A stretch of 64,000 nucleotides of DNA from an uncultured virus (IMG/VR IMGVR_UViG_3300022752_000049) (lineage: Duplodnaviria; Heunggongvirae; Uroviricota; Caudoviricetes). The notes beneath the pieces are model-generated. The model made no database searches, had not been told where the DNA came from, and worked only from the letters and a program-made list of their open reading frames with translations. Where the stretch lies: the IMG/VR virus record IMGVR_UViG_3300022752_000049. One strand, 5' to 3'. The translations under genes were made by a program, and so were the position numbers. Below are positions 14,552-49,207 of the stretch, piece after piece. Position 1 is the first letter of the stretch. Each line of letters starts with the position of its first letter.

Positions 14552-15185
14552 TTACTGTCTCATTCCCCACAATTTCTGAGCAATAGGATCGTTATATCCA
14601 GCTGCGCCTTCACTCTTAGAGGCGTCATGTCTTGCTGCGGAAACTTTTTCTTTATTTGATTCTTCCTCTGGATCTATTATTTGAAGAGTTACATTTGTCG
14701 GTTCTATTGCCCTCATTGCCTGCTGGACCTCTATTATTTTTTCAGCTAATGCGACTCTGGAAGCCAGCTGAGAATACGTTAAAGAGTCCAAGAATTCTGG
14801 AGTATCACTAGATATAGTAGCTAAAACAAACGCTTTCATTAAGCCTCTTACTTGAGAAGCTTGCTTTCTTTTTTCGTCTAGAATCTGTTTTGTTCTTTTA
14901 GGAGATGAAAAGCCAGAAAATTCTATTATTTGGTCAGCCAAAGAACTGACGGCTCCAGGAGATATTGAATTAATATCAAAATCATTAGGATATACTACTG
15001 CATATTTTACTATTTCTTCTTCAGCGTCTGCAGAAGAAAATACGCCATTATCTTTAAGGGCGCCAATTTTATCAAATTCGGAAAAAGTTAACTCTTTAAA
15101 TACAATAGTTTTTCCGCTTTAGCTGAACGCTAAATACAATGGAATACTTTTGCTTAAGCTCCTTAAGAATTGACTCTTCCAGCAT
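14552..15185 (-). CDS. Second tail assembly chaperone-like protein (210 aa), one +1 shift
   Basis: ATG at 15185, 1 nt after the upstream stop: MLEESILKELKQKYSIVFSVQLK[CGGA=G]KTIVFKELTFSEF..., joining ORF 14552..14941. It resembles the upstream protein (KQWKKQYGEVY...IVWRVLSRIEY; ILYP/VVYP; SGF). Confidence 0.65.
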
Positions 15186-15186
15186 T

Positions 15187-15753
15187 TTATAGCTGACGAA
15201 CCTCTAGCGCTACGAATCCAGATGCCTCTAGAACTTCTTGCGAAATCAAAGAAGGAAGACCGGCCATGTCGGAGGTAAGCGCTGCTTTATTGTAAGCTGG
15301 ATACAGGATGCACAGTTCTGCGATGGCTTCTTCGTTCCACATATTTGCTTCAGCCGTACTTATTTGGCCTGCTTGCATCAGTGATTCCATTTTCTTTACA
15401 AGTTGCTTATATTCTATTCTGGAAAGGACTCTCCAGACTATATGCTTATCAAAGGATATCGAAGTTATATACACTTCTCCATACTGCTTTTTCCACTGCT
15501 TAACCTGACCTGCAGTTGGTCCATTTTCAAAAATTGCTACGTCATCAGCCAAATCTTCTACAGTTGTTGCCTGAGAAGGATCAGATAACTTCTCGCCTTC
15601 AGCTGGTGTCGGTTCTGGATCTTCATAATTGGTTACCATAAGATCCGAATCCTGCTCTTCGTTTGTTTCCATGATGAGATCAACGGTATCTGCTTCTAAA
15701 TCTTTTGCTAGATTTTGGTCTCTTCTCACTACAATTTTTTTAACATCTGACAT
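15187..15753 (-). CDS. Tail assembly chaperone-like protein
   Basis: Lies between tube and tape-measure-like genes. WKKQYGEVY...WRVLSRIEYK pattern; acidic N-terminus; AAGGAG RBS. Confidence 0.6.
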   Translation of the reverse strand: MSDVKKIVVRRDQNLAKDLEADTVDLIMETNEEQDSDLMVTNYEDPEPTPAEGEKLSDPSQATTVEDLADDVAIFENGPTAGQVKQWKKQYGEVYITSISFDKHIVWRVLSRIEYKQLVKKMESLMQAGQISTAEANMWNEEAIAELCILYPAYNKAALTSDMAGLPSLISQEVLEASGFVALEVRQL

Positions 15754-15793
15754 TTTTATTATCTCCTTGGGGGTTTTGATTTAAATCACATAT

Positions 15794-15802
15794 ATTATAG
15801 CA
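15794..15802 (-). promoter_or_regulatory. Extended -10 promoter TGCTATAAT
   Basis: Matches TGnTATAAT, about 40 nt upstream of the 15753 start. Confidence 0.6.
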
Positions 15803-15810
15803 CAAGTATT

Positions 15811-16839
15811 CTATGACTTATAAGCTATATTGCTATTCCTTGGTGGTTGAATTTTAATAGTATTATCATAATATTTTGAATTTTGAGCAACAAATGTCTT
15901 ATTCCCAGTGTATGGATCGAGATTAGTTCCGGCTTCTGTAAAATAAAAATCTCTTGCTACAAATGAATATGTTTCTATAAGTGGAGCGCCCCCACTTTGG
16001 TATTCTGTTGACATTTGCATTAAATGAACGTTTTGTAAAACAATTTTCATTGCGTTACCTACTCCAGATAATTTAATTTTTCTTTCATTAATATCTGTTG
16101 ATATCAACCTGTCTAAATTATCTCTTTGCTCCACTGCTGCGGTTGATTTATTGCTTGAGCCAGTTATTGGAGAAAGACTAGTATCATCAACACCGTACAT
16201 AATAACAAAATTAAATGGCGGGTGGGCACTGAAGATATTATGTGTTCCACCAGCAGAACCCGCAGTTATTGCTGGGTCGGTTGTAATTCTATCAAGTTGA
16301 CTATTAGCCCAATATTTTTGTATATTTTCTTCATCTTTACGAGATTCATTTTGTGACCTCATGACAGAAACAACTCCTGATCCATCTTTTTTGCCAGAAA
16401 TAGATTGCACTCTAGCCTCAGCGGCTTTTTCCAAAAGCTCGGTCATTCTTCTTGGATATCTAGAATAAACAGAAAACTGCCCTGTAATAATTCTTGTACC
16501 ATTCATAATGGCATCAAAATTATAGGACCAAAAACCATAAACGGCTTGCTTTTCTTGTTTAATTAAAAATCCAAAACCAGCTATATCTAGCTCATCACCT
16601 TCGTCAAATAAACCGTCAATGAAAACTTTTACGTCTTCACCAGAAAAAAAGTAATCATAATAATTACTAAATCTAGGATCGGCCTTAGAGCTTCCAGCCC
16701 AATATAAATCCAAATCTGCTGTTAGCGGATCAAATGTTCCATCCAGATTCCTAATTCCTGGTCTATTGGATACAGTTTCCTCATATGGAATATAACCAGT
16801 AAATGGCTTGTAGGGATTTGTTTTATAAACTCCAGTCAT
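15811..16839 (-). CDS. Tail tube-like or baseplate hub paralog
   Basis: FSGEDVKVFI...QEKQAVYG...GTRIITGQF...PPFNFVI...ETYSFVARD aligns with the two tube-like proteins upstream. Confidence 0.65.
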   Translation of the reverse strand: MTGVYKTNPYKPFTGYIPYEETVSNRPGIRNLDGTFDPLTADLDLYWAGSSKADPRFSNYYDYFFSGEDVKVFIDGLFDEGDELDIAGFGFLIKQEKQAVYGFWSYNFDAIMNGTRIITGQFSVYSRYPRRMTELLEKAAEARVQSISGKKDGSGVVSVMRSQNESRKDEENIQKYWANSQLDRITTDPAITAGSAGGTHNIFSAHPPFNFVIMYGVDDTSLSPITGSSNKSTAAVEQRDNLDRLISTDINERKIKLSGVGNAMKIVLQNVHLMQMSTEYQSGGAPLIETYSFVARDFYFTEAGTNLDPYTGNKTFVAQNSKYYDNTIKIQPPRNSNIAYKS

Positions 16840-19718: not shown

Positions 19719-19726
19719 TATAGTAA
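19719..19726 (-). promoter_or_regulatory. Candidate late promoter motif TTACTATA (one of about 8 copies)
   Basis: The same motif precedes structural genes at about 23955, 24274, 34959, 41000, 47251, 50847 and 53605. Confidence 0.55.
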
Positions 19727-19789
19727 TGATTAACCTATAAAAACCAACTACATTTTATTTCTGAACACTTAAATTATATATTTAAAATA

Positions 19790-24268: not shown

Positions 24269-24294
24269 GGCTCTATAGTAATTCTTAAACTAAT

Positions 24295-34911: not shown

Positions 34912-34982
34912 GGTTCTCCTATAAGCTTAGTTATTGGTATAATCAAATGCTCGTTGAATATAGTAATGGCTTATTCATAAAA

Positions 34983-46445: not shown

Positions 46446-47216
46446 TTAAATACCTATATCTTTTGAAACAATAATTCTATATTTATATCCAGTCTCAAAA
46501 TAGGTTTTATCTTCTGTGTAATAAGCTGGGGTAGCGTCATTGGAAGGAAAATCTACGTAGACCTCCGGTTTCCAAGAGTGCATTTGTATTTTTGCATCTA
46601 CGGATTCCCATCTAGATGGAGTTCTTTGAATTTTTTTTCTTTGTATCTTAAAATACTGTGAGGTTAAAAAGTTTGTTGCTGGTCTAGCGTTGAACGCTAT
46701 TGTTACTCTACCATTATTGTGAGAATTATCTATATAAAAATCTCCGTTATCAGGATCAACATCTTTTATATAGAACTCTGGATTTTTTGCTATTATTTGA
46801 TACGAAGTATATGCTTCGTTAAGTACTGATTTATCTTCAATATATATTTCTTCTACAGTTGGAACTGTAATGGAAGAAACCCCAGATGGTGTGGCCGCAT
46901 CCTGTTTTGTAAAGACGATATATTCTTCTGGAACAACTTCGTTTGCGGCATCAAGTAATCCAACTAACCTAATTGCATACTCTTGACCAGAAACAAGTGT
47001 TTTATTCCAATATAGGGTAAGTGTTCTTGATATAGTGTTATAATCCGCTAATGTATTAATTACCTTAAACGGATTCTCTACCTGGCTAGGCGTTGCAGCG
47101 CAGGTTTGAGCAATAAATTTATCATTTGTTATAGAAGCAATCTTGATAGTTCTGCCAAATTTAATTTTAACTCTGTCCAAGTTTACTGCTGCGTAATCAA
47201 TTAAATTCAGCGGCAC
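46446..47216 (-). CDS. Putative Ig-like head or decoration protein
   Basis: Two beta-sandwich-like halves (LVSGQEYAIRL; FETGYKYRIIV); GTG start with AGGAG RBS; follows the MCP. Confidence 0.5.
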   Translation of the reverse strand: MPLNLIDYAAVNLDRVKIKFGRTIKIASITNDKFIAQTCAATPSQVENPFKVINTLADYNTISRTLTLYWNKTLVSGQEYAIRLVGLLDAANEVVPEEYIVFTKQDAATPSGVSSITVPTVEEIYIEDKSVLNEAYTSYQIIAKNPEFYIKDVDPDNGDFYIDNSHNNGRVTIAFNARPATNFLTSQYFKIQRKKIQRTPSRWESVDAKIQMHSWKPEVYVDFPSNDATPAYYTEDKTYFETGYKYRIIVSKDIGI

Positions 47217-47269
47217 GGTTTGCTCCTACGTTGTATATACAGATATTTAATTAGTAACTAAAAACGGAC

Positions 47270-47300
47270 AAAAAGATAAGGGGTGGCTTTCGCCACCCCT
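47270..47300 (-). terminator. Intrinsic terminator after the major capsid gene
   Basis: AGGGGTGGC-GAAA-GCCACCCCT followed by TATCTTTTT. Confidence 0.88.
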
Positions 47301-47317
47301 GATCCCTTCTTAGGATT

Positions 47318-47340
47318 CCGTAACTATAACGGCCCTAAGG
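47318..47340 (+). other. 23-nt copy of 23S rRNA helix 69 region (antisense in the capsid mRNA 3' UTR)
   Basis: CCGTAACTATAACGGCCCTAAGG versus bacterial 23S CCGTAACTATAACGGTCCTAAGG, 22/23 identical; reference recalled from memory. Confidence 0.8.
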
Positions 47341-47347
47341 ACTGTTA

Positions 47348-48409
47348 TTAGAGCGATACCTGGTTTGTAACCGAAACTTCGTAGTTACGGGTCAGGCGTA
47401 CGTTCTTAGCAACTGTGATACCCTCACCGTCACCGAGCATAACGATGTCATAGCGCTCTTTCATCTTCATCGAACGAATGTCACGTGATGGATCATCGAA
47501 CTGATCCGTGCTCATGTCGTCCTTGACGAGAAGAGTGCCAACCTCATTACGGTCAATCAGGAAAAGGTCTGACTTGGCTGGTGTTGAACCGCTCTTAGCA
47601 GTAAAGCTAACGAATGGCGAGACGATAACATTCAGACCCATTGGGGCTGTGGAGTTAAGCGTGCCTTCCTTAGACTGCGGACGGTAGCCCCAGCTTGTGT
47701 TGACAGCAGCTGCAGATCCACCTGCATGGAAGATCGAGTCTTTCAAGAAGACCGACCACATGAGTGGGTGGAGAATGAAGTCTGTTGGAACATGATTCTC
47801 GGCCATTAGAACAGCTGCCATATCAACGATGTCATCCCAGGTAACGGTCTTGTTGGCTGCGCCATCAATTCCGCGACCTGTTGTATCGTCGTATGAACCA
47901 CTGTCGTTGTCAAAGACGATTGTTGCAGCGTCCTTGAAACGGCTAAGTGCAATTTGTTCCTTCAGGCGTGCCATTGCACGACCTGCAGCACGTACATGCA
48001 GACCTACGATGTCCCAAAGTGAGTCAGCAATAACTTCCTCTGTGAAAGCCAGCTTAACACCTTTCTTTGACACCTTGCCCTCGACTTGCTTAGCAAATGC
48101 GAGTGCCTGCTCTGGGTATTCTTGTCCTTCTGGTATCTCAGCAGCTTGAATTGCGTTTACCGCTGGGAATTCCAAAGAACGACCCTTACCGAGGCGTACT
48201 GTTGAAAGGAGCGGAGTCACCAAAAGCTGCGGTTCGGCTGCCTCTTTTAGAGTACGCGAGATAACTTTGGGGAATAGCGCTGCGGCATCGGATGATGCAA
48301 AGGCCTCCTTAATTGTCACTCTGTTCTCTAAGTCGATGTAACCATCCTCAGCAAATGCGGCTTCCCAAGCTGGGAGACCCGAGAGGAGTTCTTGTATTGT
48401 TTTACTCAT
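47348..48409 (-). CDS. Major capsid protein
   Basis: 353 aa; AAEIPEGQEYPE...KKGVKLAFTEEVIADS.WD...AGRAMARLKE; FILHP; strongly biased codon usage; AGGAGG RBS; followed by a terminator. Confidence 0.88.
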   Translation of the reverse strand: MSKTIQELLSGLPAWEAAFAEDGYIDLENRVTIKEAFASSDAAALFPKVISRTLKEAAEPQLLVTPLLSTVRLGKGRSLEFPAVNAIQAAEIPEGQEYPEQALAFAKQVEGKVSKKGVKLAFTEEVIADSLWDIVGLHVRAAGRAMARLKEQIALSRFKDAATIVFDNDSGSYDDTTGRGIDGAANKTVTWDDIVDMAAVLMAENHVPTDFILHPLMWSVFLKDSIFHAGGSAAAVNTSWGYRPQSKEGTLNSTAPMGLNVIVSPFVSFTAKSGSTPAKSDLFLIDRNEVGTLLVKDDMSTDQFDDPSRDIRSMKMKERYDIVMLGDGEGITVAKNVRLTRNYEVSVTNQVSL

Positions 48410-48451
48410 CTTAGGATCTATCCTCCTGTTTGTTGTTTTTTTATTTTCTTA

Positions 48452-49207
48452 TTAGAGCGTCAGGTTAACGCGGAATGCGCCAATGACGTTCGTAACATCC
48501 AAATTGGAGCGGATGCCCAACTTGTTCTTATAGGTGCCTTCACGTGTAATTTCATATACCGTCTTCAAAGCACCTGGGTCTGACGGCAGCTGCATGTAGG
48601 AGAGTAGACCGTCATCGAAGTTTGTTGCAAACTTTTCGACTTCAATTACTTTACCAACTTGCAACCATGGGTACGATGCTGCGTCTGCTGTTGAAAGCTT
48701 TCTTGGGCGACCCATAAAATCTGGGGCGATCAAGTCACCTGCAGCAACGTCTGCGTTTACATTTGTAACCATTGGGTACTCTACATAACCGTGTGTGATA
48801 AAGCCAGCACCTTGTGATGTGCCCTTATCGAATGGTCTGTAAAGATCATATTGTGCGCATCCAACTGGAAGCGAACGAGCGGCAACTGCTTGAGTGTCAC
48901 CCGAAGCGCCTGCGACTGGTGTTGCACCAGCTAGTGGGTCCCAACCTGAAATAGTGTCACCCCATGTTACTGAGGATCCGCTACCGTTAGCTGGAACAAA
49001 GCGCGAATCACCATTTGCATCTGTTACAACCGAAAGGATTGTTCCTTTTGGAATAACGATTTCAAAACGGTCATCTTCTGAATCTACGTACCAAGTTGGG
49101 AGTGCAACTGATGGAAGAATGTAGGCTGATGGTGCAATACCCTCAGAAACTACAAAACGACCTGCGCCAGTCTTGGTCCCTACTTTGCGAAATTTCGCTA
49201 AGCTCAT
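48452..49207 (-). CDS. Capsid-associated (decoration/cement) protein
   Basis: Lies between protease and MCP; AAGGAG RBS; codon bias similar to the MCP; VIPKGTILS motif. Confidence 0.6.
   Translation of the reverse strand: MSLAKFRKVGTKTGAGRFVVSEGIAPSAYILPSVALPTWYVDSEDDRFEIVIPKGTILSVVTDANGDSRFVPANGSGSSVTWGDTISGWDPLAGATPVAGASGDTQAVAARSLPVGCAQYDLYRPFDKGTSQGAGFITHGYVEYPMVTNVNADVAAGDLIAPDFMGRPRKLSTADAASYPWLQVGKVIEVEKFATNFDDGLLSYMQLPSDPGALKTVYEITREGTYKNKLGIRSNLDVTNVIGAFRVNLTL

Follow-up and report, generated by a model that had tools for sequence, protein, structure and literature searches.

A conserved phage RNA hairpin complementary to helix 69 of bacterial 23S ribosomal RNA

Shine–Dalgarno sequences, which lie 5′ of the start codons of nearly every gene, pair over 4–9 nucleotides (nt) with the 3′ end of 16S ribosomal RNA (rRNA). 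Small RNAs derived from 3′ untranslated regions (UTRs), of the type represented by CpxQ and SdhX, and the stable RNAs of the T4 transfer RNA (tRNA) cluster have messenger RNAs (mRNAs) as their targets in the known examples, and we know of no small RNA derived from a 3′ UTR or a tRNA operon that targets rRNA. Helix 69 (H69) of 23S rRNA forms the tip of the main inter-subunit bridge of the ribosome, is contacted by tRNAs and by release and recycling factors, and is near-identical across bacteria. Here we describe an RNA hairpin that carries a sequence complementary to H69 and is encoded directly behind the major capsid gene in a 64,000-nt stretch of DNA, called the window throughout, from an uncultured virus of the class Caudoviricetes (IMG/VR record IMGVR_UViG_3300022752_000049).

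Pairing between a viral message and rRNA has been described for TURBS (short for termination upstream ribosomal binding site) in caliciviruses and in influenza B segment 7 which, in the available text of three papers (PMC3035654, PMC6393290, PMC11921876), is thought to tether a ribosomal subunit after termination. H69 itself has been targeted artificially: as described in PMC10777018, the synthetic 13-mer peptide nucleic acid (PNA) of Kulik et al., complementary to H69, is reported to invade the hairpin and block translation. The phage hairpin resembles TURBS, as presented in those texts, in being a viral mRNA element near a stop codon that is partly displayed by structure and that carries a conserved motif complementary to an exposed rRNA hairpin loop.

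A 23S rRNA match behind a capsid gene

The plus strand of the window reads CTTAGGATTCCGTAACTATAACGGCCCTAAGG at positions 47309–47340, and within this stretch the 23-mer CCGTAACTATAACGGCCCTAAGG (47318–47340) matches 23S rRNA. The element begins 4 nt after the capsid stop codons, TAA TAA, and lies ahead of an intrinsic terminator. When E. coli genomes were searched by using blastn, annotated 23S rRNA was matched in 5426 of 5426 genomes, at a median of 7 places per genome, with 22 of 23 letters identical (95.7%; query positions 19–41, equivalent to 47318–47340 of the window). The 23-mer corresponds to positions 1902–1924 in the annotated 2898-nt 23S gene. We take this segment to be H69, presumably 1908–1930 in the usual numbering, in which H69 would span 1906–1924.

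The matched strand is the rRNA sense strand (record L082 reads CCGTAACTATAACGGTCCTAAGG at 61–83), and the capsid mRNA, transcribed from the minus strand, is therefore antisense to 23S rRNA. At the one mismatch the window has C where 23S has T, which places a G of the minus-strand RNA opposite a U of the rRNA and yields a G·U pair. An earlier note on this DNA had described the H69 match, the antisense orientation of the capsid mRNA, the conversion of the single mismatch into a G·U pair in the minus-strand transcript, and a position 4 nt past the double stop and before the terminator. The blastn alignment, the identity of the matched strand, the C-for-T reading, and the sequence together with a terminator scan bear out these points in turn, and the local folds presented below agree with the longer hairpin that the note had drawn around the match. 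The observation is confirmed in every particular.

The 23-mer is present once in the window even when as many as three mismatches are allowed, and none of 100 shuffled sequences contains it. A search of Rfam with positions 46000–49000, at E values up to 10, returned no large-subunit (LSU) rRNA match; genome record G001 likewise gave none, and the similarity stops at 23 nt. A 23S rRNA gene or gene fragment is ruled out, there being no LSU model match beyond the short stretch. A 40-nt query searched against cultured phages recovered just 23S rRNA genes in small or contaminated records and three short chance matches. The sole full phage record matched, that of Paenibacillus phage Pd_22F, was set aside, as a complete 23S and 5S rRNA operon lies inside the record. 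As a separate observation on the target, a contig from an Anaerolineales metagenome-assembled genome (MAG) (L484, roughly 1150–1330 of the locus) carries a 23S gene in which the H69 stretch CCTTAGGACCGTTATAGTT occurs twice, flanking an N-masked stretch; this duplication may be an insertion in H69.

Local folds place the match in a hairpin, CUUAGGGCCGU-UAUAGUU-ACGGAAUCCUAAG, at −12.2 to −12.5 kcal/mol; for a longer stretch of 121 nt, the minimum-free-energy structure is a different one of low frequency. In the mRNA, the 3′ UTR hairpin (47309–47340, minus strand, as are all its parts) reads CCUUAGG-GCC-GUUAUAGUUAC-GG-AAU-CCUAAG, and it is recognized by local folds, a covariance model, covariation and conservation. 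The 5′ arm CCUUAGG (47334–47340) is complementary to the 23S letters CCUAAGG immediately 3′ of H69, as seen from the 23S match and from counts of CTTAGG in relatives. This arm is followed by a variable 3-nt spacer (47331–47333; GCC in the window) that pairs with the inner portion of the 3′ arm and that, in the window, could additionally pair with rRNA GGU by using one G·U pair. Next is the near-invariant 11-mer GUUAUAGUUAC (47320–47330), complementary to the H69 loop and its closing pair. The 3′ arm CCUAAG (47309–47314) forms a variable ‘lid’ strand, the sequence of which changes among relatives while its pairing is kept. The covariance model, called R1, matches window positions 47310–47339 on the minus strand with 22 bits (E 8.9e-4).

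The anti-H69 hairpin is not itself an intrinsic terminator, as the terminator scan reports the second hairpin only; the anti-H69 hairpin is followed by AAGGGAUCA. At this locus, Rfam 15 gave four weak matches, all of them over the terminator only and far under gathering. One copy of the 11-mer is present per genome record in G001, G002 and G003, and reverse-strand copies number zero in G001–G004, so that these phage records hold no complementary partner. Likewise, the window has no full complementary copy. The best match there is the 10-mer TAACTATAAC at 43197–43206 (minus strand, inside open reading frame (ORF) 42251–43234), which is complementary to the hairpin loop; approximately 0.1 such match is expected by chance.

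Conservation, covariation and three genomic settings

Phages that carry the capsid gene of the window are termed family A. IMG/VR contains 552 confirmed relatives of this gene. Among the 80 best loci, GTTATAGTTAC (with at most one mismatch) follows the capsid stop immediately, in the mRNA sense, in 79; the remaining locus breaks off at the stop codon. When counting was restricted to loci found through the capsid protein and to unique sequences, 58 of the 59 family-A loci whose capsids are at least 85% identical proved to have the element. The earlier note had named, beforehand, absence downstream of the capsid gene in close relatives as grounds for abandoning its idea, and these 58 sequences retain the element. 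Among more distant family-A relatives it is found in none of 8, where the terminator stands alone. Pairwise identity among the 59 unique family-A sequences is 0.964 for the 11-mer, 0.364 for the 3-nt spacer and 0.388 for the following 16 nt; as a yardstick, the third codon positions of the last 110 capsid codons give 0.563. By these comparisons, the element is under strong purifying selection in the relatives.

A loose pattern scan also revealed the element behind a different capsid gene (L147 and L151), and phages of this kind are termed family B. Their capsid is an HK97-type protein (Pfam Phage_capsid) with no detectable similarity to the window capsid (BLASTP E 0.32), and the closest cultured relatives, at 54% identity, are from Streptomyces phages. 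Unique family-B loci with capsid identity of at least 90% carry the element in 20 of 20 cases, and it is found in none of 19 loci at 75–85% identity, although L270–272 retain a degenerate form. A more specific pattern scan gave, among the matches listed, 71 family-A loci, 9 family-B loci and no third capsid family. The element lies 3′ of a capsid gene in at least 71 of the 80 loci sampled.

At the family-B locus L151 the element reads CUUAGGACCGUUAUAGUUAC and is complementary to 23S rRNA at 20 of 20 positions. These 20 nt matched 20 records at 100%, 8 of which are annotated as 23S rRNA, and one unannotated match was confirmed as a 23S gene. The genera with identical letters are Klebsiella, Listeria, Dickeya, Acinetobacter, Paenibacillus, Escherichia, Staphylococcus and Salmonella, and the H69 stretch is the same in the Gram-negative and Gram-positive records matched. 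In the available text of a 2009 paper (PMC2790883), less than 2% of known 23S genes are said to deviate over the surrounding 26 base pairs (bp).

The letters that persist in these relatives are unevenly distributed between the two arms. Exact CTTAGG is present upstream of the 11-mer in 46 of 58 family-A and 20 of 20 family-B sequences (66 of 78 unique loci), and its exact partner CCTAAG is present in 2 of 58 and 0 of 20, respectively (2 of 78 overall), with pairing nonetheless kept. Indeed, the 3′ arm drifts to CCUAGA, CCUAAA, UCUUAG and other forms in which wobbles and bulges keep the pairing. Judged from these alignments, the fixed part is one strand, CUUAGG, a free spacer that is usually 3 nt, and GUUAUAGUUAC(G), and these are exactly the letters complementary to 23S rRNA. 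Typical relatives are complementary to 23S at 19–22 of 23 positions when Watson–Crick pairs only are counted.

Covariation was assessed by aligning 63 matches with a covariance model; the resulting alignment is fitted to the structure, and a small number of its members are spurious matches to the reverse strand. In this alignment 94.1% of cells are paired, compared with 86.0% in shuffles, and 0 of 500 shuffles reach the native value. Changes on both sides are seen in 8 of the 10 pairs, compensatory cells number 53 where 17.2 are expected, and pairing falls to 22–59% in controls in which the partner is slid. Among paired cells read in the mRNA sense, 64 of 527 are G·U. An arm-swap test provides a check that is independent of the structure-fitted alignment: native arms average −9.78 kcal/mol and swapped arms −7.54 kcal/mol, and the native combination is better than the mean swap in 66 of 78 sequences. 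Loose-pattern chance matches (for example, L153, L124 and L112) were set aside, and L112, L145, L100, L201 and L153 were dropped before the arm-swap test and the variant counts. RNAalifold applied to a MAFFT alignment predicted 0 pairs, as the 3′ arms stand at varying distances and were left unaligned. By the covariation and arm-swap results, the stem is real and the element is a conserved RNA hairpin rather than a scar.

The loose scan furthermore matched three loci among tRNA genes, which represent a third setting called group C. The exact 19-mer CTTAGGATGTTATAGTTAC is found in 39 viral contigs (L499–L537), of which 29 are unique in their flanks, and it always lies on the strand of the adjacent tRNA genes. 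Its motif is CUUAGG-AU-GUUAUAGUUAC, with a spacer of 2 nt instead of 3. In 29 loci tRNAs are present on both sides, with the upstream tRNA ending 18–21 nt before the motif; in 7 the motif belongs to the first gene of the array, and 3 of the 39 loci are cut by a contig end. The 19-mer sits in a non-tRNA RNA of 80–130 nt (for example, L500:381–504 and L499:382–462) that is closed by a 12-bp stem covarying between variants. We note that 12 bp is the length of a stacked tRNA acceptor stem and T arm. Inside this RNA is again a hairpin in which the 19-mer supplies both the 5′ arm and the AGUUAC loop, opposite a 3′ arm that varies. A scan in which the central 9 letters were left free returned 9 loci, with identical letters in all.

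Group-C phages are 78–112 kb in size, two of them complete, and their capsids are 44–53% identical to those of family B and unrelated to those of family A. After the group-C capsid gene, 0 of 5 loci carry the element, and the terminator is found alone. With the group-C RNA, Rfam gave tRNA matches only at gathering and no match for the RNA itself at E up to 1; DNA searches of cultured phages with the capsid-end region and with the group-C RNA gave no match. This sequence is all that the three settings have in common. In each of them the transcribed strand is the antisense of rRNA, and from gene orientation the anti-H69 strand appears to be expressed either as a capsid-message tail or as a small RNA within a tRNA operon.

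The window as a whole is the structural-gene block of a large freshwater myovirus with recognizable sheath, portal, terminase and capsid genes, and every gene is on the minus strand. Among cultured phages, jumbo phages of Bacillus from the 0305phi8-36 group are its nearest relatives, with capsid identity of 37–45%. The major capsid protein gene (47348–48409, minus strand) encodes 353 amino acids and matches Pfam Phage_capsid_4 (E 7.5e-18), Phage_capsid and the PHROG major head protein. Its stop codon TAA (47348–47350) is abutted by a second in-frame TAA (47345–47347, minus strand), as read from the sequence. The intrinsic terminator (47269–47300, minus strand) is a stem-loop, AGGGGUGGC-GAAA-GCCACCCCU, followed by a U-rich tail. 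The terminator scan reports this single site, with 9 pairs in the stem (47300–47279) and a T run after it, and the site is one-directional. A terminator 3′ of the hairpin is also present in the family-A relatives displayed.

Between the terminator and the next gene lies the motif GTTACTA (47252–47258, minus strand), which recurs intergenically in the window and after the terminator in family-A relatives. It is possibly a family-A promoter for the downstream genes and is no part of the anti-H69 element; family B lacks it and has a TATAAT-like sequence at that place instead. The form [GA]TTACTA is found intergenically upstream of genes at 47252–47258, 41002–41008, 34961–34967, 24276–24282 and 19721–19727 (minus strand) and may be the promoter of these late genes. 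The next downstream gene (46446–47216, minus strand; GTG start at 47216) encodes 256 amino acids with no family match in Pfam or PHROGs, and by these two resources it is not a homing endonuclease.

Contigs from four metatranscriptomes cover the capsid gene, and the bins from 47252 to 47322 are uncovered in all four. One contig from the X19 metatranscriptome ends at 47335; assembled contigs are uninformative on 3′ ends, processing and strand. Many metatranscriptome contigs break at 47403–47405, for which strain variation is the probable cause. The final capsid codons and the spacer after the stop (window 47351–47405) are highly divergent among relatives, with protein ends such as ...TNQVSL, ...TNEM and ...TNDVTL. 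As a lead to the host, one family-A contig is binned in an ‘Acidibacter’ MAG, which is not trusted as a host call, and one further match in the genome scan proved to be ribosomal DNA (rDNA).

Despite their unrelated capsids, families A and B have in common, at roughly 50% identity, a tail-fibre-like protein, a phrog_1574 protein and an exonuclease. The tail-fibre-like protein (window 43959–45677, minus strand; G004 14655–16454) is 46–50% identical between these otherwise unrelated phages, and the phrog_1574 protein (window 34983–35798) is 48% identical. These two proteins hint at the same host and at gene exchange for A and B. In-frame CGG is nearly absent in family A, with 5 in 10,358 codons of 16 long minus-strand ORFs of the window and 4 in 35,116 codons of 57 ORFs of G002. 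The link between the hairpin and CGG(W) recoding that the earlier note had suggested finds no support, because family B has the element yet uses CGG normally (56 in 17,738 codons; one genome per family compared). Out-of-frame CGGW is common in family A, and one CGGA lies within the 56-nt overlap of ORFs 62052–62564 and 61370–62107.

A putative antisense RNA against H69 and its rivals

The complementarity, the selection on exactly the complementary letters, their display in a hairpin and the contexts in which they are expressed are the observations from which we infer that the element binds H69. Hybridization computed against a naked 40-nt piece of E. coli 23S rRNA is stronger than self-folding in 13 of 13 variants, with ΔΔG values of −12.6 to −25.7 kcal/mol, where shuffled sequences average about −4 to −6. 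Because the complemented stretch is universal, the phage records offer no partner, hybridization is favoured in these calculations and the PNA provides a precedent, we favour, at a little less than even odds, the reading that the hairpin is a natural antisense RNA of the phage whose exposed loop touches H69 while the 50S subunit is free or immature.

If this proposal is correct, the functional strand would be the approximately 20 nt of CUUAGG-N(2–3)-GUUAUAGUUAC, the Watson–Crick complement of the H69 loop, the 3′ strand of its stem and the CCUAAG that follows. It would be presented as the 5′ arm and loop of a hairpin whose 3′ arm would serve as a freely varying lid. Abundant production could take two routes. 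In the two capsid families the element forms the 3′ UTR of the capsid mRNA, from which it might be freed, terminator included, as a 3′-UTR-derived small RNA; in the third group it would be cut out of a tRNA operon as a small RNA. Loop-to-loop kissing with H69, by at least the exposed letters AGUUAC, would occur while the 50S subunit is free or immature, and the pairing could extend from there into the CCUAAG stretch. Because H69 forms the central inter-subunit bridge, such binding should hold the 50S subunit at the RNA or stop it from joining its partner. The consequence is speculative, as recycling or re-use might be tuned on the capsid message, 50S subunits might be tethered there, or translation might be damped.

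Several points weigh against the antisense proposal. Complementarity to rRNA is not maintained in the 3 nt that separate the conserved blocks, so the pairing would consist of two helices (11–12 bp and 6–8 bp) interrupted by an internal loop. Among the seven kinds of natural 11-mer variant, four (GTTATATTTAC, ATTATAGTTAC, GTTATAGTTAA and GCTATAGTTAC) break a pair with H69 (6 of 20 variant sequences), and the three wobble-compatible kinds are partly explained by pairing within the hairpin. The rRNA target does not vary, and a piece of rDNA that was captured and then fixed by some different kind of selection would therefore be indistinguishable. An RNA that binds H69 strongly would also be expected to inhibit translation, on which the phage itself depends. 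The sense strand is the more stable one in 26 of 36 whole-region folds; for the arm duplexes it is better in 33 of 78, equal in 5 and worse in 40, and these energies do not identify the strand. Strand assignment rests instead on gene orientation, the one-directional terminator, the group-C tRNA strand and the many G·U pairs of the fitted alignment. The invariance of the group-C 19-mer arises partly by construction, as the exact 19-mer was the query of the scan. Finally, the three settings are not fully independent, given the gene exchange of A with B and the kinship of B with C; within one host community the element, and a reader protein if there is one, could plausibly pass from phage to phage.

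Such a reader is central to an alternative in which an RNA-binding protein or ribonuclease of phage or host recognizes the 3′ element for stabilization, 3′ processing or regulation, its rRNA likeness being ancestry from captured 23S rDNA. An invariant loop on a covarying stem is typical of protein-binding hairpins, the site between stop codon and terminator suits a role in stability or processing, the spacer is not kept complementary to rRNA, and a common reader could travel, given the genes that A and B have in common at about 50% identity and the related capsids of B and C. However, the proteins common to A and B (ThyX, ribonucleotide reductase (RNR), Pol III alpha, RecA, the exonuclease, the tail fibre and a structural protein of unknown role) include no candidate for this task, and protein recognition leaves unexplained both the exact rRNA complementarity of the conserved 17–20 letters, 5′ arm included, and the recruitment of the same letters into a tRNA-array small RNA. 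It also fits poorly with an antisense orientation kept in all three contexts, and we consider it rather unlikely. The hairpin might otherwise be a signal in nascent RNA that tunes termination or read-through into the downstream structural genes, for example by touching RNA polymerase or a phage factor. An intrinsic terminator is always directly 3′ of the hairpin in A and B, and the capsid gene has a far greater summed contig depth than the region downstream in the four metatranscriptomes, though contig depth cannot rank genes. Such a signal is nevertheless improbable: relatives without the hairpin have the terminator alone, group C has the same sequence in a tRNA operon without such a terminator arrangement, and rRNA complementarity would go unexplained.

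The earlier note had also offered readings in which the DNA itself, or its other strand, is functional. Its suggested overlap with the I-CeuI target holds for the first 20 bases of the 26-bp site (as given in the available text of PMC2790883), of which 19 are identical and which include the CTAA cut site, and fails for the last 6, which are absent. A nuclease-site mimic is further disfavoured by neighbouring ORFs that lack an endonuclease family match, with no homing endonuclease found nearby. The H69 region of rDNA may be prone to insertion, as the duplicated H69 stretch around a masked insert in L484 illustrates. A recombination scar would decay, yet the 11-mer is far more conserved than synonymous sites, and the covarying stem with its G·U cells in the mRNA sense points to RNA. 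A DNA-level feature is thus very improbable. The window plus strand does reproduce the H69 stem and loop (CCGU-AACUAUA-ACGG), as expected of a decoy transcript that titrates H69-binding factors. However, all genes here are on the minus strand, no sigma-70-like promoter is present on either strand within 47100–47500, and the terminator is one-directional. Moreover, in most relatives the H69 stem is replaced and the loop lies partly in the stem (for example, L015 and L025), so the shape to be mimicked is not conserved, and the tRNA operon of group C lies on the strand opposite to the one with rRNA sense; we give this decoy scarcely any credence. Least credible of all is a mimic of a CRISPR repeat, acting as an RNA anti-CRISPR or left as a solitary repeat unit. 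The hairpin of approximately 32 nt is repeat-sized, and a CRISPR-like array in metagenomes (L603 and L615), with spacers of 30 nt, has a 36-nt repeat whose first letters are the 11-mer GTTATAGTTAC. The 11-mer alone is common, however, the remainder of that repeat is missing from the phage hairpins and the conserved CTTAGG arm is not in it. None of the 80 tandem loci among the matches listed is an array built of the phage-type unit, and the only 2 with CTTAGG are rDNA duplications. The idea was rejected, as the whole hairpin matches no array repeat among these matches.

The antisense proposal gains from the recurrence of the H69 complement in two further phage settings, which suggests that phages may make RNAs that grip the ribosome. 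In its broadest form, the proposal would be that at least three phage lineages encode H69 antisense RNAs, delivered with the capsid message or from a tRNA operon, that bind the large subunit at its central bridge and thereby control subunit joining or recycling in infection; we advance this wider claim as possible, with still more reserve than the local one. Even should the pairing idea fail, this is a widespread RNA motif without an Rfam family and without a paper that we could find.

Comparison with known systems

A literature search that reached few subscription journals found no description of an element complementary to H69 in a phage or an mRNA. TURBS is the closest described analogue, and the differences are large. 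As far as the available text of the TURBS papers goes, TURBS pairs with 18S rRNA of the small subunit, whereas the phage element is complementary to H69 of the large-subunit 23S rRNA. TURBS lies upstream of a stop–start overlap and drives reinitiation; the phage element lies 4 nt downstream of the stops and, unlike TURBS, has no restart codon near, the next start being the GTG at 47216, about 130 nt further on and beyond the terminator. Thus, of the features typical of TURBS, complementarity to an rRNA loop is present, with the large subunit as its object, and placement upstream of a stop and restart is absent. The phage element differs also in having a bacterial host and in the presence of the same sequence in a free small RNA.

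The likeness to Shine–Dalgarno pairing lies in a short mRNA–rRNA base-paired contact that positions a ribosomal subunit on a message. The phage element would engage 23S rRNA over 17–23 nt, is present as one copy per genome and lies 3′ of one gene. With the anti-H69 PNA it would share the target and the principle of strand invasion, and the account in PMC10777018 indicates that H69 is reachable and that its binding blocks translation. The PNA is man-made and inhibitory by design, whereas the phage agent is a natural RNA held in a hairpin with a lid strand. The family-A and family-B hairpins resemble 3′-UTR-derived small RNAs in placing a conserved seed in a stem-loop followed by the terminator of the mRNA itself, and the group-C RNA resembles the RNAs of tRNA clusters as a small RNA cut, by predicted processing, out of a tRNA array.

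If the pairing proposed here is true, the hairpin would be the first natural RNA regulator directed at the rRNA of the large subunit, and an H69-pairing RNA would represent a new viral handling of the host ribosome. It would also offer an evolution-tested, ready-made antisense sequence against a validated antibacterial target. In relation to the systems with which we began, it would be a bacterial, large-subunit counterpart to the rRNA-pairing tricks of eukaryotic viruses.

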